Source of the DNA: a virus
Lineage: Duplodnaviria > Heunggongvirae > Uroviricota > Caudoviricetes
Strand: one strand, 5' to 3'
IMG/VR virus record: IMGVR_UViG_2534681703_000017
Length of the DNA stretch: 36,962 nt
Position 1 is the first letter of the stretch, and each line of letters begins with the position of its first letter. A model generated the notes under the pieces. It saw only the letters and a program-made list of their open reading frames with translations. It made no database searches and was not told the DNA's origin. Of this stretch, positions 173 through 14,402 are shown piece after piece. The position numbers and the translations under genes were made by a program.

Positions 173-850
173 TCATGCTAATTTTTTGCTTACAGGCTTC
201 GTTTCTTGCTCCGGCGTGGCAACGGTCTGACCACCAGGCGACCCAGCCCGTGCACGAGATTCGATGCGTCGCAAAATCTCTTTGTCAGTTTCTTCATTAC
301 CAGCCAATGCCATGCAAATAGCGTCTTTAAGCGATTCCCTGATGTTTAGGCTTCTGATGGCAGTCTCTTGTTCGTCCAGGTCGCTGTCGGCCTGCATAGC
401 TTGCCTGGTGGGTTGTTGTAAGCGTTCCAAGACTCCTTTGATACCGATGTTGTAAAAAACATCAAGCAAAACATCTAAATCTTGAGCATTCATGCGCTGT
501 AATAGGAGATTTAATTCTGTTCTTTCGGTCGGATTTTGTTGCGGATTATTGTTTTCTGTAGCGGATTTTCCTGAAATTAACCACTCTACGGGAACATTGC
601 ATGCATGAGCCACCAAAGCTGCGCTGTCTATACCTGGGTAGATCTTCCCCTGCACGTACTTTCGTATTGTGGCTTCAGATAACCCACTCAGTTTTGACAG
701 TGTCATGTAATTTAATCCGCTGCCTTCCATAGCTGATTTAAGGCGCTCGCCGAAGCGGATTATATCCATAGCCTCAATAATCCGTTCTTTCTCGGTTTGC
801 TTGCTTGCGGTTTTATCTGCGTAACCGTTTCTTTTTAAAGAGTTTTTCAT
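173..850 (-). CDS. Prophage repressor (Mu c-like position), XRE-type helix-turn-helix
   Basis: 225-aa ORF on minus strand, divergent from ner/A/B; N-terminal HTH-like segment (LSKLSGLSEATIRKYVQGK...VPVEWL); operator repeats lie between it and ner. Family assignment from memory only. Confidence 0.65.
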   Translation of the reverse strand: MKNSLKRNGYADKTASKQTEKERIIEAMDIIRFGERLKSAMEGSGLNYMTLSKLSGLSEATIRKYVQGKIYPGIDSAALVAHACNVPVEWLISGKSATENNNPQQNPTERTELNLLLQRMNAQDLDVLLDVFYNIGIKGVLERLQQPTRQAMQADSDLDEQETAIRSLNIRESLKDAICMALAGNEETDKEILRRIESRARAGSPGGQTVATPEQETKPVSKKLA

Positions 851-867
851 ATTGCACCTGTGGCATA

Positions 868-916
868 CAAAAATCCGTCAAGACAAATACAAAAATCCGT
901 TGACAGCGGATTTTTG
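868..916. promoter_or_regulatory. Operator-like repeats: CAAAAATCCGT direct repeat at 868-878 and 890-900 plus inverted copy CGGATTTTTG at 907-916
   Basis: Seen directly in sequence; sits between the divergent repressor and ner starts and overlaps the putative rightward promoter. Confidence 0.5.
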
Positions 917-928
917 TTTCACTAGGAT
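900..928 (+). promoter_or_regulatory. Putative sigma70 early promoter (Pe-like): -35 TTGACA 900-905, 17-nt spacer, -10 TAGGAT 923-928
   Basis: Hexamers and spacing read from sequence; located about 60 nt upstream of the ner start, with a GGAGAGG RBS just before the ATG at 989. Confidence 0.45.
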
Positions 929-988: not shown

Positions 989-1261
989 ATGCAGTTATCG
1001 AGACAAGATCTAACTGACTTGTTTGTTCGTCGCGGACAAGACTGGTCTAGCAAAGCAATTGCAGCCGCCCTTGATAATAAAGGGGTTGATATCACTACGA
1101 TGGAGCGTGTACGCGGCTTAAAACCTGGTGCAATGCGTAACGTGTTTTATCGCCGCGTACCTGCATATGAATCAGCAATTGCAGAAGCAATTGGTGTGGA
1201 ACCGGAAGTTATCTGGCCATCACGTTATCGGAATAAAAATCCGCATAGCAACGCTGCATAG
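989..1261 (+). CDS. ner: Ner/Nlp-family DNA-binding regulator
   Basis: 90-aa ORF immediately upstream of the transposase; C-terminal EAIGVEPEVIWPSRY matches the Ner/Nlp signature (..DPWVIWPSRY) as remembered. Confidence 0.7.
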   Translation: MQLSRQDLTDLFVRRGQDWSSKAIAAALDNKGVDITTMERVRGLKPGAMRNVFYRRVPAYESAIAEAIGVEPEVIWPSRYRNKNPHSNAA

Positions 1262-1269
1262 GTGATGTT

Positions 1270-3312
1270 ATGTGGATTACAGCAAAAGAGTGTGCTGGCA
1301 TTGGAGGGCTACCAACACGTGAACACAATGTCAGAGCACGTCTAGATCGTGTAATTGAGAATAAACCTGAATTAAGGCGCAAGCGTGAAGGCACAAAAGC
1401 ATTCGAGTATCACATCGACTGCCTGCCCGCTGAAGCGGAGAAAGTTTTACGTAAGCGCCTGACCCATCAGGTCCTGGAAGATACGCAACTGCCCGCCGTG
1501 GTTGAGCAGAAGGCAGTTAAAAACGTTACCGTTCGCGATGAACTGGAGGTGATGGTCAAATGCCCGGAACTGGCATTACGCGAAGTTCAGGCACTGACTG
1601 ACAAGCAAAAAGCCATCGCAGATGCGCGGATATTGCTGGCTACCGAAGTGCATAAACTGCGTGAATACGCAGGAATGTCCAGGACGGCGGCGATAAAACA
1701 CATCGTTGATGGTATCCGGCAGGAGGCTTTGCCCGAGCGTGTTATTGTGGCAGGTAATACCGCCAATGCCCGACAGGGTAAGCGAACTGGCGTCAGTACA
1801 GGGAGTTTACAGGAATGGTATTCCGCCTGGCTGATGGCGCGCGGTGATGCCAATCAGTTACTGGCGTTACTGGCTCCCGGTCATCATAAGGGGACACCGT
1901 GGGAGCAGGTCTGGTGGTTGAGCGATTTCTTAATGTTCTATCGCTCATGGAAGCGCCCGACCGTTGAATATGCGTATCGCGAGTTTTCAGCCTGGTGGCA
2001 TGAAAAACACGCGAATGATGCGGGAATGCTGGCAGCACTGCCTTCAGTTCATGCAGTAAGACGGGTGTTAAGCAGCGTCCCGGTGATTGTTAAAGAGCGT
2101 TTCCGCTCCACCGGTTCAGCCTGGCGTTCGCTCAATCCCTTTGTGCGGCGCGACTGGACATCATTACCGGTTAATGCGGTATGGGTCGGGGATGGTCACT
2201 GTATGAAAATGACCGCGTTTAACCCCCTGACCGGCAATATTTTCCGGCCAGAAGTAACGCTGGTTATGGATGCGGGACAACGCTTTGTTGTGGGCTGGTC
2301 ACTGTCCCTGTCGGAGAACGTGATAGCCGTTGCTGATGCGTTACGTTACGGCATGGCGCAGCACGGGATACCGCTGGTTTATTACTCCGATAACGGGGGC
2401 GGTGAAAAAAACCGGGTGCTTGATGCCGATATTACCGGGATTCTGCCCCGGCTGGGTGTGGAACATCACACGGGGATACCAGGTAACCCGCAGGGGCGCG
2501 GGGTGATTGAAAGGCTTAATAAGGAAATTCCCCGGGATGTGGCCCTGAGTTTCCAGACGTACTGCTCAAAGGGAGCAGACAAGGAAACCGTAATGATGCA
2601 GCAACGGATTATGCAGTCAGCCATTAAGGCCACCCACAAAGGGAAAGAACTGACAAAACGGCAGGTTAAGGCGAGGGATGAAATCCCCACCTTTGAGCAG
2701 CTGATGGCAGCTATAGAGCTGGAGGTCAGACGCTATAACAACCGACCACACAGCAGCCTTCCCCGCAAAGAGGATGGCGAATATTACAGCCCGGCAGCGT
2801 ATCGCCGGAAACTGATAAAAGAGCAGAATGTTGAAATTGATTTCCTGTCGCCGGAAGAACTGCATGAAATGTTCAGACCGGAAGTGACGCGCAAAACATT
2901 TCGCGGGGAAATTCAGTTATTCAACAATATTTATTACTCGTATGAGCTGGCCGCAGAGCACGGGAATGAAGTCAGGGTCAGTTACGATATTCATGATGCA
3001 AACAGCGTCATTGTCCGGCGGGCTGATGGCTCTTATATCTGCGATGCCATCTGGAACGGTAACAAGGTTGATGCCTTCGCTAAACCAGTTATCGAACAAA
3101 AACTGGAGAAACGCGTCAGAGGCCGCATTGCACGGGCCACGCAGAAAATCGAAGAGGCTAAACGCGAGCTTACCCCGGCTATTACGCAGAAACCTGACTT
3201 TAATTTTGGATTTGGTCTGGAGCGCCCGGAGAAAAAGGATAAAGAAGAACTTTATTTATTTGCATCTGAACGCGAACGCAATTTAAAGAAAAACGGCACA
3301 AACAACCGTTAA
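1270..3312 (+). CDS. A: MuA-like DDE transposase
   Basis: 680 aa, position after ner and before a MuB-like ATPase; candidate DDE residues in VGDGHC, YYSDNGGG and GVIERLNKE contexts; N-terminal ...AKECAGIGGLP resembles the MuA N-terminus. Confidence 0.85.
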   Translation: MWITAKECAGIGGLPTREHNVRARLDRVIENKPELRRKREGTKAFEYHIDCLPAEAEKVLRKRLTHQVLEDTQLPAVVEQKAVKNVTVRDELEVMVKCPELALREVQALTDKQKAIADARILLATEVHKLREYAGMSRTAAIKHIVDGIRQEALPERVIVAGNTANARQGKRTGVSTGSLQEWYSAWLMARGDANQLLALLAPGHHKGTPWEQVWWLSDFLMFYRSWKRPTVEYAYREFSAWWHEKHANDAGMLAALPSVHAVRRVLSSVPVIVKERFRSTGSAWRSLNPFVRRDWTSLPVNAVWVGDGHCMKMTAFNPLTGNIFRPEVTLVMDAGQRFVVGWSLSLSENVIAVADALRYGMAQHGIPLVYYSDNGGGEKNRVLDADITGILPRLGVEHHTGIPGNPQGRGVIERLNKEIPRDVALSFQTYCSKGADKETVMMQQRIMQSAIKATHKGKELTKRQVKARDEIPTFEQLMAAIELEVRRYNNRPHSSLPRKEDGEYYSPAAYRRKLIKEQNVEIDFLSPEELHEMFRPEVTRKTFRGEIQLFNNIYYSYELAAEHGNEVRVSYDIHDANSVIVRRADGSYICDAIWNGNKVDAFAKPVIEQKLEKRVRGRIARATQKIEEAKRELTPAITQKPDFNFGFGLERPEKKDKEELYLFASERERNLKKNGTNNR

Positions 3313-3330: not shown

Positions 3331-4224
3331 ATGAGTTTAATTACGCAATTAAATGACGTAATGGCCCGTCGCGGCTATACGCAGACCCACGTCGCCCGTG
3401 CTATTGGTCGTAGCAGCGCCGTTATCAACCAGTATTTACAGGGTAAATATCAGGGCGATATGGCTGATATTGAAGAACGCATTTCTGCCTTCGTGACCCG
3501 TGAGCGGGAAAAGGAAAACAGCCGCCGTATTAAAGCAAAGTTTGTGACCACCGGTATGGCTGCCAAAGGACTGGAGGTGCTGGCCTACGCTCACCTGGAA
3601 TGTGAAATCTGTGTGCTGTATGGCGCGGCAGGTCTTGGCAAAACAATGATTCTGCGTGAATACGCCTCCAGAAACCGGGATGCGGTCCTGATTGAGGCTG
3701 ACCCGGGCTATACAGCCAGGACACTGCTTGAGGAGTTGTGCCGCCAGCTGGGGGTAAAGGTTCGCGGCAACATTCACGAACTGATTGATGCCTGTGTGCG
3801 CGAACTGCGTGATTCCGGTCGTCTGCTGATGGTGGACGAGGCTGAACTGCTCCCCTATCGCGCACTGGAGGTTCTGCGCCGTCTGCATGACAAAGCGGGT
3901 ATCGGGGTTGTCCTGGCGGGTATGCCTCGTCTTCTGATTAATCTCAAGGGGCGTCGTGGTGAATTTGCGCAGTTATACAGCCGCGTGGCGCTGGCGCTTA
4001 ACCTGGGCGACATGCTGGCGCAGGAAGATTTTAACCAGATAGCCACCGGGCTGATGCCGGAAGCAGCAGAACGGGAAATCAGCGAGGCGCTTTACGCACG
4101 CTCGCTGGGTAATGCCCGCCGCCTGTTCAAACTGGCGCGTGGTGTGTACCGGATTTGTGATATCAGCGATGCGCCGGTCAGTGTGCAGGCCATTGATAAA
4201 TTCGCAGAAATGTTAATTCACTGA
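3331..4224 (+). CDS. B: MuB-like AAA+ ATPase (transposition target protein)
   Basis: 297 aa directly downstream of the transposase; Walker A GAAGLGKT; Walker B-like LLMVDEAE. Confidence 0.8.
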   Translation: MSLITQLNDVMARRGYTQTHVARAIGRSSAVINQYLQGKYQGDMADIEERISAFVTREREKENSRRIKAKFVTTGMAAKGLEVLAYAHLECEICVLYGAAGLGKTMILREYASRNRDAVLIEADPGYTARTLLEELCRQLGVKVRGNIHELIDACVRELRDSGRLLMVDEAELLPYRALEVLRRLHDKAGIGVVLAGMPRLLINLKGRRGEFAQLYSRVALALNLGDMLAQEDFNQIATGLMPEAAEREISEALYARSLGNARRLFKLARGVYRICDISDAPVSVQAIDKFAEMLIH

Positions 4225-4463
4225 TGGAGAACAAGATGATGGACAAGCAGACCATTAACGCCGTCCGTTCCCGTGCCCGTGTGGCCATCCACACCACCGG
4301 CGGTCGCGTAACTGGGCAACATCACCGTTTACCTGTGGTTTATGCCTGCCCGCCCGTGGGCGGCCCTGTATGGCCGGTAACGGAAATCATCCAGACATTC
4401 AGCGGCCTGCGCCGCGTGGTGAAAACGTCCTGTATCGACGGCTGCACCGTCGTATGGCAATAA
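4224..4463 (+). CDS. Hypothetical early protein (79 aa)
   Basis: ORF in operon context; start overlaps the B stop (ATGA). No recognisable motif. Confidence 0.4.
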   Translation: MENKMMDKQTINAVRSRARVAIHTTGGRVTGQHHRLPVVYACPPVGGPVWPVTEIIQTFSGLRRVVKTSCIDGCTVVWQ

Positions 4464-4475
4464 GAGGAAATCAGA

Positions 4476-4691
4476 ATGGCGGTTAAGTTAGAAGTAATTA
4501 TCTATACCGATGAAAAAGGCTGTGTTTTAACCCAGACCACGGGGAGTTATTCGAAGGACGGAGCTTCCGAAAAGGAGTTTCAGGTGGCAACAAGATTACA
4601 TGATGCTATCAAGGAAACGCTCAGAAATGACTATAACGGCGTGAATCTTTTTTCTGAAAATGTTGCGCCTCGCGCACATAACACACATTAA
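4476..4691 (+). CDS. Hypothetical early protein (71 aa)
   Basis: ORF in operon context; AGGAAA-like RBS a few nt upstream. Confidence 0.4.
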   Translation: MAVKLEVIIYTDEKGCVLTQTTGSYSKDGASEKEFQVATRLHDAIKETLRNDYNGVNLFSENVAPRAHNTH

Positions 4692-4720
4692 TCTGTAAAT
4701 ATCACTGAGGTAATTTAATT

Positions 4721-5365
4721 ATGACGACTGAAAATAAAGTTAAGCAATACACGAAAACTCAAGCGCCTGAAGGTTACTGGGTGGATGCCCGTGGCGTAAT
4801 GACACCTGAAAGCCTTATCAAAGATATTGACCGCGACCGCGAGCAGCTGGTCGGTGAGCTTGTGGAGATGGTGATTACTGCCTCCGCCTCACTGCGGGAA
4901 CTGAAACTGCGTGCGTTTGGTGATATCCAGGCATTTATTGACCTGTCGGCAGAGAAATACGGTGCTGTGAAAGGCGGCAAAAAAGGGAATATCACGCTTT
5001 ACAGCTTTGACGGGCGTTACAAGATTCAGCGCGCCATGCAGGACCGTATCGCGTTTGATGAACGCATTCAGACCGCGAAGGCGCTGATTGACGACTGTCT
5101 GGCTGACTGGACGGAAGGTGCGCGCCCTGAAATTAAAGCCATCATCAGTGAGGCATTCAGCACGGACAAGGAAGGCAACATCAACACCGGGCGCGTTCTG
5201 GCCCTGCGTCGCCTCGAAATTGAGGACGAACGCTGGAATAACGCCATGTCGCTGATTGGTGAAGCCGTCCAGGTGATTGGCAGCAAGAGCTATATTCGTG
5301 TGTATGAGCGCGTTGGTGATTCTGATGAATACCGCGCAATCCCTCTTGATATTGCAGGGGTTTAA
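4721..5365 (+). CDS. DUF3164-like protein of Mu-like phages
   Basis: 214-aa ORF in the early region; overall resemblance to the DUF3164 family seen in Mu-like prophages (recollection, not searched). Confidence 0.5.
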   Translation: MTTENKVKQYTKTQAPEGYWVDARGVMTPESLIKDIDRDREQLVGELVEMVITASASLRELKLRAFGDIQAFIDLSAEKYGAVKGGKKGNITLYSFDGRYKIQRAMQDRIAFDERIQTAKALIDDCLADWTEGARPEIKAIISEAFSTDKEGNINTGRVLALRRLEIEDERWNNAMSLIGEAVQVIGSKSYIRVYERVGDSDEYRAIPLDIAGV

Positions 5366-5366
5366 T

Positions 5367-5600
5367 ATGCATCAGAATATCAAAGAGTACAGAGCCGGAA
5401 ATAGTTGCGCGGCGTATTCGCTGGGCGCGTCCAGAGCAGAACAACGCGGCGATTATGACGAGGCAGAAAAACTGTGGCGCAAGGCAGCGCAAAGCCCGTG
5501 TAGCACCCTGCGCCGCACCTGGGCTGAACATCGTGCGGAGTTCTGCGCTAACGCTCACCTGAAGGGATGGAGGCCACGCCATGAATGCGAAGAACTTTAA
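5367..5600 (+). CDS. Hypothetical protein (78 aa)
   Basis: ATG at 5367 one nt after the stop of the preceding gene; in frame with track ORF 5277..5600, whose upstream part overlaps the DUF3164 gene. Confidence 0.4.
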   Translation: MHQNIKEYRAGNSCAAYSLGASRAEQRGDYDEAEKLWRKAAQSPCSTLRRTWAEHRAEFCANAHLKGWRPRHECEEL

Positions 5601-5772
5601 TAAGTTATATCCGCTTGGTACTCGTTTCATGCACATTGCACATCAGGCGGTGCGTGGTGGGCGGGTGGTAAAAACTGTTGCACCGGCCAGAGATTTTAAA
5701 TGTGGTTGTGTGATTGAAATTAATGTCGAGCCTTATTTCGTAAAAGTCGAAACACTGAAAGCACCGCATTAA
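5581..5772 (+). CDS. Hypothetical protein (63 aa)
   Basis: Track ORF overlapping the end of the preceding gene; operon context only. Confidence 0.3.
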   Translation: MNAKNFNKLYPLGTRFMHIAHQAVRGGRVVKTVAPARDFKCGCVIEINVEPYFVKVETLKAPH

Positions 5773-5780
5773 TTTAATTT

Positions 5781-5848
5781 GTTTTTAATTGTTATTTAAA
5801 ACAGGCGTAAACCCGCCGGGGCTGGCTTACGCCTGAATCTGGAGGATT
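5781..5848 (+). repeat. Leader element copy 1: AT-rich block, hairpin GGCGTAA-N16-TTACGCC (5804-5833), then TGAATCTGGAGGATT carrying the RBS
   Basis: Near-identical ~65-bp element repeated at 6407-6472; each copy ends 6-10 nt before a start codon. Confidence 0.6.
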
Positions 5849-5853
5849 TGTAT

Positions 5854-6399
5854 ATGAAAGATAAAGTCTGGGATTTTATTGTTGCTCCTGAAGGTTTTGC
5901 CACCCGTTCATCTGAGAAGTTAACCAATGTAACGTTATGGGCATCATCATTGCTGGGCCATCTGGGAGCACCTGCCGATTTTATGTATGTGGTACTTGAT
6001 GCGCAGATTGCCGGAAATGCTGTGGCCAGTAATGGGGCTTATATTCAGGGGGATTTGTTCGCCATGATGGCGAATGACACAGCAGCGCTGTATATCGCCA
6101 CACGGAACATACTGACAAGAATATCCATGCTGTCTGACTGTAAGGATATGGAAGACCTCGCATACATCCTTGAAGATGATTTGCTCACTATTTCAGGTGT
6201 GCAGGAATCCCTCTCGCGTCAGTTGCGGTTTATTGAACTGATGGAGTCATATAAAGATAAGCCTGATTTTTTTCAGATTCGATTCAGCGGGATGGAACTG
6301 CTGGATAAATATTATCCGCTGGATTCGATTGCCCGTGATGTGAAGGCGTTCGTTAAGTCTGTTGGCCGCCATTACTGGAAAGCTGAACGTCGTAGTTAA
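5854..6399 (+). CDS. Hypothetical accessory early protein (181 aa)
   Basis: ATG at 5854 lies 8 nt after GGAGG (5841-5845); the track start at 5848 is a TTG in the same frame. No recognised domain. Confidence 0.5.
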   Translation: MKDKVWDFIVAPEGFATRSSEKLTNVTLWASSLLGHLGAPADFMYVVLDAQIAGNAVASNGAYIQGDLFAMMANDTAALYIATRNILTRISMLSDCKDMEDLAYILEDDLLTISGVQESLSRQLRFIELMESYKDKPDFFQIRFSGMELLDKYYPLDSIARDVKAFVKSVGRHYWKAERRS

Positions 6400-6406
6400 T
6401 AAGTCT

Positions 6407-6472
6407 GTTTTTAATTTTATTTGTATATGGCGTAAACCCGCCGGGGCTGGCTTACGCCTGAATCTGAGGGAT
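6407..6472 (+). repeat. Leader element copy 2: hairpin 6429-6458 plus TGAATCTGAGGGATT
   Basis: Second copy of the 5781-5848 element, immediately upstream of the gene at 6478. Confidence 0.6.
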
Positions 6473-6477
6473 TCATT

Positions 6478-7194
6478 ATGGAAAATAAAAGCAAATACAT
6501 CGCCAAAATTAAAAAGCTGTTACGCCTTGCCAGAGGAACATCAAGCCCGGAAGAAGCCGCTAACGCTATTGCAAAAGCCCAGGCTTATATGCGCCAGCAT
6601 GGCATCAGCGAAAACGACGCTGAATTGTTCGACATTCAGGAAGCTGCCAGCGCGGGTGCGCCGAGTGATGCCAGTACACCGCCGCGTTATATGCACATCC
6701 TGTGTGACCTGGTCTGTAAAGCCTTCGGTGTCGAGTGTTACATCTCCGGCGAATACCGGGCTTCTGGTTCACTCAAACGTTACGTTCGTTTTTATGGTCC
6801 TGACAGCCGCCCGGAAATTGCGGCATATGCGTTTGATGTGCTTTCCCGTCAGATGATGGCAGAGCGCAAGAAATATCAGGATAAACACTGCAAACGTTGC
6901 GGCCCGTCCACGCGGGTGGCCCGTGGCGACCAGTTCTGCGAAGGCTGGGTCTTTGGTGCCCGTGATGTCATTGCGGTGTATGACGTCTCCCCGGAAGAAA
7001 AAAGCCGCCTTGAGCTTTACAGAAAGAACCTGCACAGCACTAAGGGACTGCGCGACGGGGATATGCGCACAGCTAAAGCGTGCCGGGGTGCAGAGTTTGC
7101 CGCTACTGCCGGTTTTATCGCCGGGAAAAACGCCAGACTGCATCAGGGGGTTAATGGTCAGAGCAACAAAACGCTGGCACTGGGGAGGGTGTAA
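6478..7194 (+). CDS. DUF2786-like protein
   Basis: N-terminal KIKKLLRLARGTSSPEEAANAIAKAQAYM resembles the DUF2786 signature as remembered; Cys-containing C-terminal half (CKRCG...CEGW). Confidence 0.5.
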   Translation: MENKSKYIAKIKKLLRLARGTSSPEEAANAIAKAQAYMRQHGISENDAELFDIQEAASAGAPSDASTPPRYMHILCDLVCKAFGVECYISGEYRASGSLKRYVRFYGPDSRPEIAAYAFDVLSRQMMAERKKYQDKHCKRCGPSTRVARGDQFCEGWVFGARDVIAVYDVSPEEKSRLELYRKNLHSTKGLRDGDMRTAKACRGAEFAATAGFIAGKNARLHQGVNGQSNKTLALGRV

Positions 7195-7196
7195 CG

Positions 7197-7424
7197 ATGG
7201 CTTTTAAACTTCTCAGTGTTACCGAAGCAATATACCAGCCGCCCGGAGAACGCCACGAATACAGGATGAATGACGGTAGCGCGGCGGTTGAGTTCCCCGG
7301 ATATCCGGGGGCTTCCCGGTGGCGGTTCTATGACAGTGCGGGACGCCGGATTATTAAAAGAATCGTGCACAACGCCATGAAAGCCGCTGTAGAACGTCAC
7401 AAAAGGAGGTTTAACTGCAAATGA
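7197..7424 (+). CDS. Hypothetical small protein (75 aa)
   Basis: Start 3 nt after the previous stop; part of a chain of translationally coupled small ORFs. Confidence 0.4.
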   Translation: MAFKLLSVTEAIYQPPGERHEYRMNDGSAAVEFPGYPGASRWRFYDSAGRRIIKRIVHNAMKAAVERHKRRFNCK

Positions 7425-7645
7425 ATATTGAATTTTATAACTATGGGACTAAAGCAAAAATCATTGTTACCTGCTGGCTCTGGGAGTTTCGCCGCTATAA
7501 CCGGGTTGTGGATGCGGCGCTTTTTGTGGCCCCTGAAGTGCACCATCAGAGCGGTGGCGGTCTTTTAATGAGAACCGTCATCTACGGTAAGACGGTCCCG
7601 ATGTTACGGGCGTTTAAAGTGGCAAAACAGGAGGCTGCACAATGA
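7421..7645 (+). CDS. Hypothetical small protein (74 aa)
   Basis: Start overlaps the previous stop (ATGA-type coupling). Confidence 0.4.
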   Translation: MNIEFYNYGTKAKIIVTCWLWEFRRYNRVVDAALFVAPEVHHQSGGGLLMRTVIYGKTVPMLRAFKVAKQEAAQ

Positions 7646-7833
7646 GTAACGAGCACATCCATCATTATCAGCGTGATGGGTCAATTTTCATATGCCAGCG
7701 TTGCGGCACAGCAAAGCATCGTAATGGTAAATACTGGTGGGCCGGTCGCTATTCAGAATCTGAACCACCATGTGTTGATGATGTTGTGGGGCAGGATGCG
7801 TGGTTTGAAACTGCAAAAAGCGAGGAAGGATGA
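7642..7833 (+). CDS. Small CxxC-containing protein (63 aa), possible zinc ribbon
   Basis: CQRC motif plus a third Cys and several His; start overlaps the previous stop. Confidence 0.4.
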   Translation: MSNEHIHHYQRDGSIFICQRCGTAKHRNGKYWWAGRYSESEPPCVDDVVGQDAWFETAKSEEG

Positions 7834-7834
7834 G

Positions 7835-8023
7835 ATGAAAAACCGTAAGGCAAGACTGCTGATAGCAAAGCCCGGGCAGTGTATCCGTATCTCAAACAGG
7901 CTTGTTATTTACTATAGATATCTGGGTTTTAGGGGGGGTTCCTCTATTCGTTTTTACGGTGTCTGGCGGAGCAGAAGCGCGGCGCAAAACCGCTGGAGGA
8001 ATCACGGAGCAACAACACGATGA
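7835..8023 (+). CDS. Hypothetical small basic protein (62 aa)
   Basis: ATG at 7835 just after the previous stop and preceded by GGAAGGA; in frame with track ORF 7673..8023. Confidence 0.35.
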   Translation: MKNRKARLLIAKPGQCIRISNRLVIYYRYLGFRGGSSIRFYGVWRSRSAAQNRWRNHGATTR

Positions 8024-8205
8024 AAACTATCACTGTAACGGTTGAAATCGACGTTCCTGATAACGCAACGGACAATGATATTGCTGATTTTGTCGATGTC
8101 GAGTATGGGGAGTGCGGAAAAATGGCACTTGATAACCCATGCCGGACAGATGGAACGGAAATACTCGATGCCAGATGGGAACACGGACCTGATTACGCGA
8201 GGTGA
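8020..8205 (+). CDS. Hypothetical small acidic protein (61 aa)
   Basis: Start overlaps the previous stop. Confidence 0.4.
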   Translation: MKTITVTVEIDVPDNATDNDIADFVDVEYGECGKMALDNPCRTDGTEILDARWEHGPDYAR

Positions 8206-8208
8206 AAT

Positions 8209-8466
8209 ATGAGATTGGTTGACCTTTTTATTATCGCTCTGATTATTACGGTTATTGCGCTTTGCGTTACAACGGGCAAGGAACCTGATGTTCCTGGTGA
8301 TACGGGTGGGCATTGCGTGGTAAGGAGAAGTTTCATCAAAACCATTACGCATTGTGATGATGGAAGCGCCACCATGACCAGCGGCGATAAGTTTATATAC
8401 TGCTCTGCCGGGAAAGATGGCACGCCATCCTGTCATGAAGTGACGCTCAGTGATGGTGATAAATAA
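8209..8466 (+). CDS. Small exported or membrane-anchored Cys-rich protein (85 aa)
   Basis: Hydrophobic N-terminus (LVDLFIIALIITVIALCV) followed by a four-Cys soluble part. Confidence 0.4.
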   Translation: MRLVDLFIIALIITVIALCVTTGKEPDVPGDTGGHCVVRRSFIKTITHCDDGSATMTSGDKFIYCSAGKDGTPSCHEVTLSDGDK

Positions 8467-8499
8467 TTCATCATGTTGAGCGGATAATAATCATGCGCA

Positions 8500-8543
8500 G
8501 ACCAAAACATATGTTTTGGTCTGCCAAAAGTGATGTTTTGGTC
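8500..8543. promoter_or_regulatory. Perfect 22-bp palindrome GACCAAAACATATGTTTTGGTC (8500-8521) plus direct copy of half-site ATGTTTTGGTC (8533-8543)
   Basis: Read directly from sequence; candidate dimeric protein-binding site inside the early region. Confidence 0.45.
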
Positions 8544-8546
8544 ATT

Positions 8547-8825
8547 ATGAAAATTGAACAAATCGGAATAGCTGCCTTCAGGCAGCAGGCTGAAAGCGGT
8601 GGTGTGGATGAGTTCGTCGTGCAGCGGTTCGGTGGTGTGTATCACCTCTTCGCTGTGAATCGCCGCGCCGGGGTGTCCTATTTTCTACAGGAACGCCGTG
8701 GCGATTACAAGACGTGGCTGTCTCTTGACCGTGCCGCCGCGTTCCTGTCGGGGATTGGTGTTTCACGTTTTACCGTGCGTTTTGAGGATAACAAACATGC
8801 TGAAAAAGATGATCGGGGCCATTAA
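8547..8825 (+). CDS. Hypothetical protein (92 aa; track ORF starts at 8493)
   Basis: In-frame ATGs at 8493, 8511 and 8547; the first two lie inside the palindrome, so the start is uncertain. 3' end overlaps the GemA-like gene. Confidence 0.3.
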   Translation: MKIEQIGIAAFRQQAESGGVDEFVVQRFGGVYHLFAVNRRAGVSYFLQERRGDYKTWLSLDRAAAFLSGIGVSRFTVRFEDNKHAEKDDRGH

Positions 8826-9192
8826 AGCCGGTCAGGCGTATCTGGGGTGGGATGATGCCCTTTATCGCCAGACGCTGGCCCGCCTGACCGGTAAAACCAG
8901 CACCACACGCTGCAATCTCGATGAACTGCGCATCATCCGGGAATACATGCACGAACAGGGATTCCCGCGCAAGGCACCCGCTGGTAAAGGTCGCCGCCCT
9001 CGTGTTGCAATGAGCAGAAAATCAGTATTATCCAAAATTGAAGCGTTGCTGGCTGATGCCGGTCGTTCCTGGGCGTATGTAGAAGGACTGGCATCTCACA
9101 TGTATAAGCAACATGTGATCGAATGGCTGACGGATGAACAGCTTTTTGGAGTGATGGTGGCGCTGGTTAAAGATTCAAGGAGACGTAAATGA
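8797..9192 (+). CDS. GemA-like (Mu gp16 family) protein
   Basis: ATG at 8797 preceded by GAGGA; LGWDDALYRQTLARLTGKTS...LRIIREYM resembles GemA/DUF1018 as remembered; the track ORF 8698..9192 extends upstream in the same frame. Confidence 0.5.
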   Translation: MLKKMIGAIKAGQAYLGWDDALYRQTLARLTGKTSTTRCNLDELRIIREYMHEQGFPRKAPAGKGRRPRVAMSRKSVLSKIEALLADAGRSWAYVEGLASHMYKQHVIEWLTDEQLFGVMVALVKDSRRRK

Positions 9193-9527
9193 AAAAACTG
9201 TTATTACTTATTCTGACTTTATGTTTTACAGGGATATCCCATGCTTCTGATTCAGAGGAAGATTTGATCAAAAAAACATTACAGGGCGATTATCAGGCAC
9301 AACGTAATCTGGCTTATTCATACATGAATGGCTGGGATGATATTTCAAAGGATACCATCAGAGGATGCGCTCTCAGGAAGGTTATTCTCTTAACACAAGC
9401 CCAAGCTGACATTGGCGATTATGGAAATGAAGCCATAGATTGTCGAAAAGTGCATCCAACAGATAACCAGAAAGTATGGGAGTATGTCAGAGGATACCTG
9501 GTGTTGATAAACGAGAATAAAAAATAA
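9189..9527 (+). CDS. Secreted (signal-peptide) protein, unknown function
   Basis: N-terminus MKKLLLLILTLCFTGISHA is a classic cleavable signal peptide; sits between the GemA-like and Mor/C-like genes. Confidence 0.5.
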   Translation: MKKLLLLILTLCFTGISHASDSEEDLIKKTLQGDYQAQRNLAYSYMNGWDDISKDTIRGCALRKVILLTQAQADIGDYGNEAIDCRKVHPTDNQKVWEYVRGYLVLINENKK

Positions 9528-9539
9528 TATGAATAACAA

Positions 9540-9563
9540 CCTTCGCAAACGCGGAGGTTTTTT
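9540..9563 (+). terminator. Putative intrinsic terminator: CCTTCGC-AAAC-GCGGAGG (one G-U pair) followed by TTTTTT
   Basis: Stem-loop and T-run read from sequence, directly downstream of the gene ending at 9527. Confidence 0.5.
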
Positions 9564-9569
9564 ATGGTC

Positions 9570-9597
9570 TGTACAGGCGATCATGTATGGCTATAAT
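9570..9597 (+). promoter_or_regulatory. Putative promoter with strong -10 (TATAAT 9592-9597) and weak -35 (TGTACA 9570-9575)
   Basis: Hexamers read from sequence, 16-nt spacer; placed between the terminator and the Mor/C-like gene. A poor -35 would fit an activator-dependent promoter. Confidence 0.35.
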
Positions 9598-9626: not shown

Positions 9627-10094
9627 ATGCAGACCTTCAGTGAAACAGATCTTCGCGATGCACAGGCACTGCTACCCGATTCCGTACAGCAACTGATTAG
9701 CGTGATTGGCTTCCCCGCCCTGACCCGGTTGATTTGTTCTTTTGGTGGTGTGACGTTAAGTGGTAAAACCGGCGCACACGCCGAACGCACCGGCGGTGTC
9801 CATGCCCTGTTACATGACGTGCTGACCGAAGACGAAATCAACAAACTGATCCGCTTTCTTGGCGGTGCACCGTTTTACATTCCCCGTTGCGATCATGCGT
9901 TACGTGCCCTGCGTAACACCCGTTTTATGGCTGATTTACAGCAGCATGTAAAAGGCGGATGCTCACACCGGCAGGCGCTGGCACTGCTCTGTCCCCGTTA
10001 CGGCATTTCAGACCGGTACGCATGGCAGCTGATACACCGACGACAAAAACAGACTTCGCTGAAAAGCCCCACCCAGGTGGGGCTTTTTGATTAA
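9627..10094 (+). CDS. Mor/C-family transcription activator
   Basis: 155 aa; FLGGAPFYIPR and C-terminal HTH-like ISDRYAWQLIHRR resemble the Mu Mor/C family (..GGQVYIPRG..) as remembered. Confidence 0.6.
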   Translation: MQTFSETDLRDAQALLPDSVQQLISVIGFPALTRLICSFGGVTLSGKTGAHAERTGGVHALLHDVLTEDEINKLIRFLGGAPFYIPRCDHALRALRNTRFMADLQQHVKGGCSHRQALALLCPRYGISDRYAWQLIHRRQKQTSLKSPTQVGLFD

Positions 10095-12056: not shown

Positions 12057-12209
12057 ATGGTGCTCGCTGAACGCATCACCCATTTTTACCGTCAGTACGG
12101 TACACATGATGGCACGGTCATTGAACTGGATACCGGGAAAAACGTGTATGTTCTTGAAAATCCCGACGAAGTTAAATGTCTGATTGAACAGGATCAGAAG
12201 GACACTTAA
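12057..12209 (+). CDS. Hypothetical small protein (50 aa)
   Basis: ATG 12057 about 13 nt after AGGAGG; in frame with the longer track ORF 11922..12209; start uncertain. Confidence 0.25.
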   Translation: MVLAERITHFYRQYGTHDGTVIELDTGKNVYVLENPDEVKCLIEQDQKDT

Positions 12210-12709
12210 TGGCGTGGTCACAGGATATCAGGGACAAAGTCCGTAACGGGTACATCTTTGACCAGCTTCCGCTGGATATCGTCGCCATGAAGTACGCCGT
12301 GCCGCACGACACCGCGCGGCGCTGGAAAACGCAGGCAATGAAGAACGGCGACGACTGGGACAAGCTGCGGGCCGCGCACGCGCTCGCCGGTGACGGGCTG
12401 GAAAGTGTCGCCCGCACCGTGCTTATCAGTCTGGTGGTGAAGTGTCAGACGACGCTTGAGCGGCTGAACCAGAACCCGGACATCCCGCCGCAGGAGTCCG
12501 TCGAACTGCTGGCGAGTCTGTCTGACAGTCTCAGTAAGGCGGTGGCCAGCAGCAAAAAAATCCTGCCGGAAACCGACCGGCTCGCCACGGCACTGGAAGT
12601 GGTGCAGCGGCTCGGCGCGTTCATCAAGGAGCGTCACCCGGCACAGTATGCCCCGTTTCTTGAGGTGCTCGAAGGCTTCGCTAAAGAGCTTGAGGATAAT
12701 TTCAGTTAA
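12209..12709 (+). CDS. Putative terminase small subunit (Mu gp27-like, DUF1804-like)
   Basis: 166-aa ORF immediately upstream of the large terminase; family assignment from memory and synteny. Confidence 0.45.
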   Translation: MAWSQDIRDKVRNGYIFDQLPLDIVAMKYAVPHDTARRWKTQAMKNGDDWDKLRAAHALAGDGLESVARTVLISLVVKCQTTLERLNQNPDIPPQESVELLASLSDSLSKAVASSKKILPETDRLATALEVVQRLGAFIKERHPAQYAPFLEVLEGFAKELEDNFS

Positions 12710-12715
12710 CCACAG

Positions 12716-12735
12716 CGGCCCGGTTTTCCGGGCCG
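12716..12735 (+). other. Stable hairpin CGGCCCGG-TTTT-CCGGGCCG between the two terminase genes
   Basis: Perfect 8-bp GC stem with 4-nt loop read from sequence; the following sequence is only weakly T-rich. Confidence 0.4.
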
Positions 12736-12743
12736 TCTGATAT

Positions 12744-14402
12744 TTGTATACCAGGTGTGACGTGGCAAAACGTAAACTTTCCATTAAAGAGTTTCAGAGA
12801 AGCTTACAGGAATATATCGCCAACCTCCGCCAGACCATTGAGGCTGAATGTCTGGGGTTCGATGTTAACCCGCAGGCCACACAGGCCCGCCGGGCGGCAG
12901 TCTGCGACCCGGTGACGGGCTACGATTATTTTGTCGAAAACTATTTCCCGCACTACGTCCGCAACCCGGCAAAAAGTGAGCTGCATAAATACCTGTTCAG
13001 CCGTCTGCCACAGGTTGTGGCAAGCCCTGACCCGGAGAACGACGCCATCGCCGCGCCCCGTGGTGAAGCAAAATCCACGCTGGTGACGCAGCTGTTTACC
13101 CTGTGGACCATTATCCGGGCCATTAAACATTACCCGGTCATCATTATGGACAGTATCGACCAGGCTTATCCGATGCTGGAAGCCATCAAGGCTGAACTGG
13201 AATTTAACCCCCGTTTAAAAAACGATTTCCCGGAAGTGTGCGGTCAGGGGCGCGTCTGGCGTATGGGGACCATTGTCACGGCTAACAATATCAAGGTGAC
13301 CGTTGCCGGTAGTGGTAAAAAGCTGCGTGGTCTGCGCCACGGTCCGTACCGTCCTGACCTGGTCATCCTCGACGACATCGAGAACGACGAGATGGTGCGT
13401 AACCCGGAGCAGCGCGACAAGCTGCATGACTGGCTCACTAAAGCCGTGATGCCGCTGGGTGAGGCTGGCGGTAAAACCGATATTATTTATATCGGGACCA
13501 TCCTGCATTACGACTCCGTACTGTCGCGCACGCTGAATAACCCGATGTGGAAAACGGCCCGCTTTAAGGCAGTTATTCAGTGGCCTGCCAATATGAAGCT
13601 GTGGGACGAGTGGGAAGAACTCATCCGCAACAAACAGCCGGAAGCAGCAGAGGCACTTTACCGACAGAACGAAGCTGACATGCTCGCCGGGTCGGTGGTG
13701 TCATGGGCGGCGCGTCCCCTGCTGGCACTGATGAAAATCCGTGTCCGTGACGGTCATGACACCTTTGATTCTGAATACCAGAACGACCCGGTCAGCGGTG
13801 AAGATGCGCTGTTTGCGGGCTGCATTAAGTTCTGGGTTAACCGTCTTGATGAATGGGTGTTTTATGGTGCGGTTGACCCCAGTCTCGGGAAGAAAAACAA
13901 AAACCGTGACCCGTCGGCCATTCTCGTGGGGGGCTTTAACCGCTTTACCGGCATTCTGGATGTGGTTGAAGCCGATATCCGCCGACGACTGCCAAACAAA
14001 CTTATCGAGGACGTGATTAAGTATCAGCGGGAATATCACTGCCTGTGCTGGTCGTTTGAGTCCGTTCAGTTTCAGGAGTTTCTGCGTACCGTGCTGGTTG
14101 AGCGTTCGGCGGCGCTGGGCGTTCCGGTTCCGGCGCTGCCGGTCATCCCGCTGGAGGATAAGGCGCTGCGTATCGAATCCCTTCAGCCGCATATGGCCAA
14201 CGGCCTGATTCGTATCAGTCACACACATCAGACACTGATTGACCAGCTGCGCCACTACCCCAAAGCCGACCACGATGATGGCCCGGACTGTCTGCACATG
14301 CTGTGGACGCTGGCGGTATCGCGTAGCGCAAAATTTCAGATACACACCCCACGCAGCACCGGGCGTGACCGTGGCGGGCGTTTTGGTTCAGGAGGATGGT
14401 AA
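12744..14402 (+). CDS. Terminase large subunit (Mu gp28-like)
   Basis: 552 aa; Walker A-like motif around PRGEAKST; position before the portal. Start uncertain (TTG 12744 or in-frame GTG 12762). Confidence 0.75.
   Translation: MYTRCDVAKRKLSIKEFQRSLQEYIANLRQTIEAECLGFDVNPQATQARRAAVCDPVTGYDYFVENYFPHYVRNPAKSELHKYLFSRLPQVVASPDPENDAIAAPRGEAKSTLVTQLFTLWTIIRAIKHYPVIIMDSIDQAYPMLEAIKAELEFNPRLKNDFPEVCGQGRVWRMGTIVTANNIKVTVAGSGKKLRGLRHGPYRPDLVILDDIENDEMVRNPEQRDKLHDWLTKAVMPLGEAGGKTDIIYIGTILHYDSVLSRTLNNPMWKTARFKAVIQWPANMKLWDEWEELIRNKQPEAAEALYRQNEADMLAGSVVSWAARPLLALMKIRVRDGHDTFDSEYQNDPVSGEDALFAGCIKFWVNRLDEWVFYGAVDPSLGKKNKNRDPSAILVGGFNRFTGILDVVEADIRRRLPNKLIEDVIKYQREYHCLCWSFESVQFQEFLRTVLVERSAALGVPVPALPVIPLEDKALRIESLQPHMANGLIRISHTHQTLIDQLRHYPKADHDDGPDCLHMLWTLAVSRSAKFQIHTPRSTGRDRGGRFGSGGW

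Follow-up and report, generated by a model that had tools for sequence, protein, structure and literature searches.

What are the many small genes for that lie between the MuB-like and GemA-like genes of a Mu-like transposable phage? The question is raised by positions 4224-8466 of the viral record IMGVR_UViG_2534681703_000017, a stretch of 36,962 nucleotides (hereafter the window, meaning the whole of the DNA that was analysed) which makes up a Mu-like transposable phage genome of ~37 kb. We consider it quite likely that this block makes up the accessory part, of the semi-essential type, of the early operon in a transposable Mu-like prophage carried by E. coli and related bacteria. The block appears to combine a conserved scaffold of genes (numbered O1-O5 and O7-O9, followed by O14, GemA and Mor) with hot spots at which cassettes are exchanged between related prophages. 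The scaffold genes include O4, an orthologue of the anti-activator Rnr, and O3, a DUF3164 protein that may stand in for the missing Gam protein of Mu.

The position of the block in the window is defined by the following genes and candidate signals:

173-850, minus strand: repressor gene
900-928, plus strand: Pe-like early promoter (TTGACA-17-TAGGAT) upstream of the ner-like gene, a consensus match only
989-1261, plus strand: ner-like gene
1270-3312, plus strand: Mu-type transposase (MuA)
3331-4224, plus strand: MuB-like AAA ATPase
8797-9192, plus strand: GemA homologue (Pfam PF06252, E 3.8e-18)
9538-9559, plus strand: hairpin resembling a terminator, with a T run, at which the early operon probably ends
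9627-10094, plus strand: Mor

The original prediction, made from the sequence alone, regarded the block as the counterpart of the semi-essential early region of Mu. The presence of repressor, ner-like, MuA and MuB genes upstream and of GemA and Mor downstream upholds this view, and the position between B and gemA/mor on one strand is annotated in the same way in related prophages. Of 5426 complete E. coli genomes, 82 contain DNA of such prophages (80-99% identity), which RefSeq annotates with the same order of genes, and the exact proteins of all eight window open reading frames (ORFs) that were looked up, six of them from the block (O2, O4 and O10-O13), are recorded in E. coli assemblies. No isolated phage with this genome was found in a 50,697-record phage collection, which returned only short tail-fibre and O11/O12 matches; the overlap of the block with isolated phages in that collection is limited to a stretch of 167-175 bp.

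About 13 mostly small, translationally coupled ORFs had been predicted in the block. Six-frame listing and re-translation yielded exactly 13 on the plus strand between the MuB-like and GemA-like genes (O1-O13), for a coding fraction of 0.948 (94.8%). Their 12 internal junctions are tight: four are overlaps (three of 4 nt, of the ATGA type, and one of 20 nt), four are gaps of 1-3 nt, two are gaps of 12 and 29 nt, and the two gaps of ~80 nt both lie around O6. A GGAG-like ribosome-binding site precedes most of the starts. The block had been taken to begin at 4224, where an ATG is indeed open, but O1 more likely starts at 4236, as it does in its RefSeq relatives.

Sequence signals suggest that the block likely forms one transcription unit with the transposition genes, an early operon of ~8.6 kb running from the promoter at 900-928 to the terminator at 9538-9559; a consensus scan found no convincing internal terminator between the two. 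The block would then be transcribed together with the transposition genes after derepression. A promoter-like site also lies before mor at 9570-9597, 3' of the terminator-like hairpin.

The first gene of the block is a Kil homologue:

4236-4463, plus strand: O1, 75 aa, basic, predicted Kil homologue, first gene after MuB (PHROG 2679, E 7e-36)

O1 sits directly after B, the position occupied by kil in Mu, and is identified as a Kil homologue by sequence comparison. PHROG 2679, which is annotated Kil, is also matched, weakly, by Mu Kil itself, and O1 aligns with Mu Kil at 34% identity over 44 aa in BLAST (E 3.5e-4). As a Kil homologue, O1 would probably interfere with the division or the viability of the host cell at an early point of the lytic cycle. 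The expectation that the region holds host-interaction genes is thus borne out by O1 and by the Rnr orthologue O4 (ANR family), and the same two genes contradict the earlier statement that nothing in the block could be assigned a function from sequence alone.

A Gam homologue had not been identified in the block, and there is none in the whole window: no ORF matches PF07352, and the best tblastn match to Mu Gam has an E-value of 0.21. With the same tool, Mu Gam itself gives E 4e-42. The candidate for its place is the third gene of the block:

4721-5365, plus strand: O3, 214 aa, DUF3164 (PF11363, phage B3 orf6 family; Pfam E 2.5e-81)

O3 had already been described as DUF3164-like, and its residues 19-212 cover positions 1-193 of the 194 of the PF11363 profile. 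What connects this family with Gam is the distribution of the two genes. On either side of one locus, the Casadabanvirus phages D3112 and WX_01 share 98% and 96.6% identity; at the locus itself, gam (801 bp; D3112, 3995-4795) is exactly replaced by DUF3164 (618 bp; WX_01, 3983-4600). None of 80 DUF3164 loci, most of which include MuA or MuB, and GemA, has a Gam match, nor did any Gam turn up when 97 neighbouring ORFs, drawn from 14 of these loci, were scanned with Pfam. Conversely, DUF3164 is absent from all 80 Gam loci taken from viral contigs (68 of which include GemA), so that the two genes occur together at 0 of 160 loci. Mu has Gam and lacks DUF3164; two roseophages have DUF3164 and lack Gam (PMC5488378). 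Given the exact swap, the absence of co-occurrence and the patterns in Mu and in the roseophages, we read DUF3164 as a candidate non-homologous replacement of Gam, a proposal to which we give almost an even chance. O3 would then, with the same near balance of probabilities, protect phage DNA from host nuclease, the job of Gam in Mu, by means of a fold unrelated to that of Gam.

Several points tell against such a replacement. The structural model of O3 is moderate (pLDDT 75, pTM 0.47) and resembles neither Ku nor Gam, nor any DNA-binding fold or solved structure. The swap at one locus may mark a recombination hot spot, and two variable slots of the present block (slots 1 and 2, below) do exchange unrelated genes. 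The 160 loci, moreover, are biased to close relatives and phylogenetically non-independent. Alternatively, DUF3164 may have nothing to do with Gam and act as a separate core accessory factor of replication or transposition, the gam/DUF3164 swap being the product of such a hot spot. This alternative, a serious one even if we hold it to be somewhat less than probable, is in line with the lack of structural likeness of the O3 model to Gam or Ku, with the replacement of unrelated cassettes by one another at fixed slots of the block and with the detection of DUF3164 protein in roseophage particle proteomes (PMC5488378). It fits less well with the complete mutual exclusion of the two genes over the 160 loci, with the exactness of the replacement in near-isogenic phages and with the unusual degree to which these two early genes are conserved (62% identity between the Gam proteins of Mu and D3112, and 58-60% between DUF3164 of E. 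coli and of Pseudomonas).

Across 80 gamma- and beta-proteobacterial genomes, the identity of O3 is 53-77% and that of MuA from the same loci 21-69% (median 40%), a comparison that carries the caveat that the loci were selected by their DUF3164 score. Individual loci follow this trend, with for example 77% identity for DUF3164 versus 25% for the transposase in Photorhabdus. Better conservation of DUF3164 than of the same-locus transposase suggests strong constraint or gene exchange between Mu-like lineages. We found no publication on the function of DUF3164 or of DUF2786 (the latter a domain of O7, below); replacement of Gam provides the widespread and very conserved DUF3164 family with a concrete, testable hypothesis.

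Directly downstream of O3 lie two further scaffold genes:

5367-5600, plus strand: O4, 77 aa, 234 bp, ANR family anti-activator, Rnr (ROD_02851) orthologue (NCBIfam NF033650)
5581-5772, plus strand: O5, 63 aa, overlaps O4 by 20 nt (PHROG 5591, E 2e-41)

O4 matches NF033650 with 57.5 bits (cut-off 32; E 9e-16), has a mass of 8935 Da and contains, at residues 11-42, a match to a single TPR-like helix-turn-helix motif. Its identity is best seen from the reagents published for rnr (PMC10148876). The lambda-red knockout arms designed for enteropathogenic E. coli (EPEC) E2348/69 map to 5237-5414 (163/178 identical) and 5553-5730 (158/178), where the DUF3164 gene ends and where O5 begins, respectively, and the pRnr cloning primers map onto the first and last 33 bases of O4 (5367-5399, 32/33; 5568-5600, 33/33). 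By these matches, O4 is the orthologue of Rnr/ROD_02851, and at the same locus.

Rnr is an ANR anti-activator that represses RegA; its loss increases regA 10- to 12-fold as well as mouse colonisation (PMC4038620). In a two-hybrid assay it binds both H-NS and Ler (PMC10148876); it controls more than 500 genes in EPEC (PMC10148876, PMC4038620), and binding to AraC/XylS regulators and H-NS family proteins has been reported for Rnr and Aar (PMC10148876, PMC4038620, PMC4983702). By analogy with this mode of action, which relies on protein contact with AraC-family activators, H-NS and Ler, O4 would probably reprogram host transcription through the same partners.

In the Rnr literature the gene is termed phage-encoded, and we did not find there its placement in a Mu-like early operon. 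This placement appears to be an old one. An ANR gene lies directly 3' of DUF3164 in 13 of the 80 DUF3164 loci of other species, and the pair occurs in Enterobacterales genera that include Xenorhabdus, Photorhabdus, Mixta, Pantoea, Trabulsiella, Kosakonia, Edwardsiella, Morganella, Erwinia and Citrobacter. O5 is found just downstream in 27 of the 80 loci and accompanies DUF3164 and ANR in Enterobacterales. The recurrence of ANR after DUF3164 across several genera indicates that the ANR gene is a long-standing resident of this Mu-like phage lineage.

Some of our results sit uneasily with the reading of the block as an accessory part of a Mu-like early operon. The published Rnr phenotypes come from lysogens, which implies expression from a repressed prophage, and a consensus scan found no sigma-70-like promoter just upstream of O4. 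Outside the PHROG profile, O1 resembles Mu Kil weakly and over a short stretch. Finally, the promoter and terminator consensus scans behind the operon limits are not enriched relative to shuffled sequence. It is conceivable, although in our opinion rather doubtful, that O4, possibly together with the envelope proteins O13 and O16 (slots 2 and 3, below), chiefly serves the lysogen through virulence tuning or phage exclusion. All published effects of Rnr, namely more than 500 genes changed, repression of the type III secretion system and altered colonisation, were indeed seen in C. rodentium and EPEC lysogens, and the membrane anchor of O13 and the signal-peptide-like N-terminus of O16 are typical of exclusion proteins. 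However, O4, O13 and O16 lie within the predicted repressor-controlled early operon and are tightly coupled to their neighbours, with no promoter-like site before O4, and the place of ANR after DUF3164 is fixed in Mu-like prophages of several Enterobacterales genera, suggestive of a role tied to the phage itself. Our preferred reading remains that of an accessory part of the early operon.

The organization of the block was further defined by comparison with five related E. coli prophages. O1, O2, O3, O4, O5, O7, O8, O9, O14, GemA and Mor are present in all five and thus constitute the scaffold; their proteins are mostly 80-100% identical, with O2 down to 51% in one prophage. The members not yet described are:

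4476-4691, plus strand: O2, 71 aa, scaffold gene with divergent alleles (51-97% identity; PHROG 7438, E 1e-52)
6478-7194, plus strand: O7, 238 aa, DUF2786 + DUF7168 (Pfam), scaffold gene
7197-7424, plus strand: O8, 75 aa, basic, scaffold gene (PHROG 9400, E 2e-40; 95-97% identity in 5/5 prophages)
7421-7645, plus strand: O9, 74 aa, scaffold gene, left border of slot 2 (PHROG 1001, E 2.5e-36)
8547-8825, plus strand: O14, 92 aa (110 aa if started at the ATG at 8493), scaffold gene, overlaps gemA (PHROG 7844, E 2e-62)

The 90% cluster of O2 includes a C. rodentium member. O7, for which a DUF2786-like nature had been correctly foreseen, carries PF10979 at residues 6-45 (E 5e-13) followed by PF23771 at residues 62-189 (E 2e-29); its predicted structure is confident, with partial fold matches only. 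O14 lies just beyond the range of 4224-8466 originally considered.

Three variable slots interrupt this scaffold. Slot 1, between O5 and O7, is occupied by O6 in the window, by a DUF7448 gene plus O6 in two of the prophages and by a reverse-strand ORF in two others. Slot 2, between O9 and O14, holds O10-O13 in the window, a combination that was found in no complete E. coli genome. Slot 3, between GemA and Mor, holds O16. The cassettes are:

5854-6399, plus strand: O6, 181 aa, acidic, orphan cassette, slot 1 (present in 3/5 related prophages)
7642-7833, plus strand: O10, 63 aa, CxxC and His-rich, slot 2 (PHROG 7369; 1/5 prophages)
7835-8023, plus strand: O11, 62 aa, pI 12.0, slot 2 (PHROG 1380, E 2e-9; pN/pS 0.25)
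8020-8205, plus strand: O12, 61 aa, pI 4.05, slot 2 (PHROG 8773)
8209-8466, plus strand: O13, 85 aa, apparent N-terminal membrane anchor followed by a 4-Cys domain, slot 2 (PHROG 8391)
9189-9527, plus strand: O16, 112 aa, signal-peptide-like N-terminus, weak Sel1-like repeat, slot 3

The descriptions given earlier of the slot 2 products largely stand: re-translation recovers the CxxC motif of O10, the very basic 62-aa O11 and the acidic 61-aa O12. O13 had been called a Cys-rich exported protein; it does contain five Cys, and a hydrophobic helix near its N-terminus (residues 3-21, mean hydropathy 2.86), but looks membrane-anchored rather than cleaved and exported. It is present in two of the five prophages with ~80% identity. 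O10 gave weak zinc-finger-like Pfam matches below the cut-off. A copy of O10, 98% identical, lies unannotated in the related prophage locus L004 (4946-5134), where RefSeq calls an overlapping 336-nt ORF. The O11 gene is shared with Escherichia phage HEMP4 at 91% DNA identity, and homologues of O12 (43-63% identity) are scattered among Pantoea phage G19, Escherichia phages IME392 and EP_H11 and a Stx1c phage. Full-length homologues of O6 were found only in E. coli, with at least 82% identity, in searches of 5.8e9 and 1.84e9 proteins; no distant relative was found in 1.84 billion representative proteins, the phage collection or the PDB, and O6 has no match in Pfam, NCBIfam, PADLOC or the PDB.

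The borders of slots 1 and 2 are marked by repeated or palindromic sequences:

5783-5848, plus strand: cassette-leader repeat, copy 1, with an AT-rich run, an imperfect hairpin and the O6 ribosome-binding site
6408-6473, plus strand: cassette-leader repeat, copy 2, with the O7 ribosome-binding site
8497-8543: double palindrome with three GACCAAAACAT half-sites, right border of slot 2, between O13 and O14

The leader is a 66-nt direct repeat that flanks O6, with a 38-nt core identical at 5804-5841 and 6429-6466, and in the five related prophages a copy stands before every gene of slot 1. Its role may be to provide the homology through which cassettes are exchanged, or it may work at the RNA level. 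A consensus scan of the element found no promoter. The slot 1 hairpin was also considered as a stable RNA element and rejected, its fold z-scores of -1.1 and -0.7 versus shuffled sequence not being significant. In four related prophages, the 277-nt 'gap' that precedes DUF2786 contains, after a slot 1 leader copy, a small unannotated ORF whose product begins with MNIAKQ (from ~7243 onward in L001, ~6619 in L002 and ~3579 in L003 and L005); this ORF is absent from the window. The sequence at 8497-8543 consists of a perfect 28-bp palindrome and a second inverted repeat, with at most three changes in all five related prophages, and could be an operator or form alternative RNA hairpins near the start of O14, which is itself uncertain (8493 or 8547).

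For the cassettes O6 and O10-O13, the most fitting description is that of accessory genes that can be exchanged and would serve host takeover, exclusion or counter-defence. A narrower proposal, that the block is an anti-defence island whose small cassettes (perhaps with O2, O5, O8 and O9) would inhibit restriction-modification, CRISPR or abortive infection, appears unlikely to us. To its credit, the cassettes are small, lie in a predicted early operon and turn over fast between prophages that are otherwise 92-99% identical; O12 is very acidic, like many DNA-mimic inhibitors, relatives of O11 and O12 are scattered among other phage genomes, and O6 has no relatives outside E. coli. However, hot-spot turnover is equally typical of superinfection-exclusion genes, toxins and morons, and the two genes with known relatives, those for Kil and Rnr, are host-physiology genes rather than immune inhibitors. 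Nor is there any similarity to a characterised protein: O6 and O10-O13 have no such match in Pfam, NCBIfam, PHROG annotations, PADLOC or the PDB, the PADLOC defence models scanned against ten ORFs gave a sole, chance-level match (E 0.0046, 14.8 bits), and PDB sequence searches with O3-O7, O12 and O13 returned no informative relative save the TPR-motif matches of O4. We found no literature linking Mu-like early regions to anti-defence. Elsewhere in the window, at 12209-14402, DUF1804 is followed directly by the large terminase gene, and several related prophages have a DNA methyltransferase gene in between. A phage DNA methyltransferase was considered as an anti-restriction function and rejected, being absent from the window though present in some related prophages.

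That the ORFs themselves are genes was assessed by family membership and selection. All 13 match a PHROG family, mostly over their full length and with E-values of 1e-28 to 1e-127 (the match of O11 is weaker, at 2e-9), and the ratio of nonsynonymous to synonymous polymorphism (pN/pS) relative to the five E. coli prophages is 0.00-0.45 for the 11 measurable ORFs, denoting purifying selection; this set excludes O10, with zero synonymous differences, and O13, with no usable pair. The lowest values are those of O12 (0.00, from six differences only) and O1 (0.03). The ORFs of the block are therefore real genes. It is very improbable that some of the small ones are chance reading frames, a suspicion that would fall on O11, which lies inside a longer open frame overlapping O10, has the weak PHROG match just cited and few database entries for its exact sequence, but whose own pN/pS is within the range of every measurable ORF and whose gene is kept in HEMP4, most of the other ORFs having full-length PHROG matches and ribosome-binding sites.

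Overall, the block is fairly ordinary for a Mu-like phage. Rnr is already characterised; the hypothesis that DUF3164 takes the place of Gam is new. A bolder combination, in which DUF3164 is a new Gam-replacing family, the cassettes are new inhibitors of defence or physiology and Rnr is primarily a Mu-like takeover protein aimed at H-NS, strikes us as improbable when taken as a whole. More immediately, Rnr, a protein studied for its part in EPEC and Citrobacter virulence, can now be located in the predicted early operon of a transposable prophage, which recasts the questions of what the gene is there for and at what stage its product is made. The exchangeable small genes, with their defined slot borders, further provide a short list of candidates for host takeover or counter-defence.

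Among known systems, O4 is close to Rnr of C. rodentium and EPEC E2348/69, a member of the ANR family which also comprises Aar and Cnr. The two share their length (234 bp, 77 aa), their mass (8.9 kDa) and their neighbours (DUF3164, by its 3' end, on the upstream side and O5 on the other), and the published primers are near-exact on O4. O4 is nonetheless an allele, not an identical copy: the window shows 92% and 89% identity over the 178 bases of each EPEC arm, and the C-terminus of the EPEC protein differs. The relationship of O3 to the Gam protein of Mu (PF07352, a host-nuclease inhibitor) is of another kind. The two share their place in the early region, where one exactly replaces the other in Casadabanvirus and where they are never found together, but have no similarity in sequence or predicted structure.

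The B3-like Pseudomonas phages (B3 orf6, JBD67 gp06) display the same order of A, B, small genes, DUF3164, small genes, GemA and Mor, and their DUF3164 protein is 60% identical to O3; ANR, O5 and the E. coli cassettes are absent from them. In JBD67, DUF3164 is followed by gp05 (6611-7006), which is labelled 'Mu Gam-like'. We considered it as a case of Gam/DUF3164 co-occurrence and rejected it, since gp05 matches neither Gam in Pfam nor Mu Gam in BLAST. The full label, 'Mu Gam-like end protection', goes back to PHROG 6755 and to the Gam-fusion family phrog_18351; in the absence of a Pfam Gam match, the RefSeq label is therefore probably misleading. The domain of gp05 may be one that partners with either Gam or DUF3164.

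Repeated elements are known from other plastic regions of phage genomes, such as the promoter-stem-loop units of T4-type phages and the boundary sequences of lambdoid phages. The leader of slot 1 is similar in that a short repeat heads each exchangeable gene, in the window as in the five prophages; it differs in having no promoter consensus and a hairpin no stabler than that of shuffled controls.

The block as a whole is most readily compared with the semi-essential early region of Mu (kil to gemA; Mup05-Mup16). Both lie between B and gemA/mor on the same strand, and both are dense in small early-operon genes, with a Kil homologue first and GemA and Mor after. Similarity in sequence, however, is limited to Kil, GemA and Mor. 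The block has no counterparts of Mup06-Mup14 and no Gam, and carries in their stead DUF3164, ANR/Rnr, DUF2786/DUF7168 and cassettes of its own.

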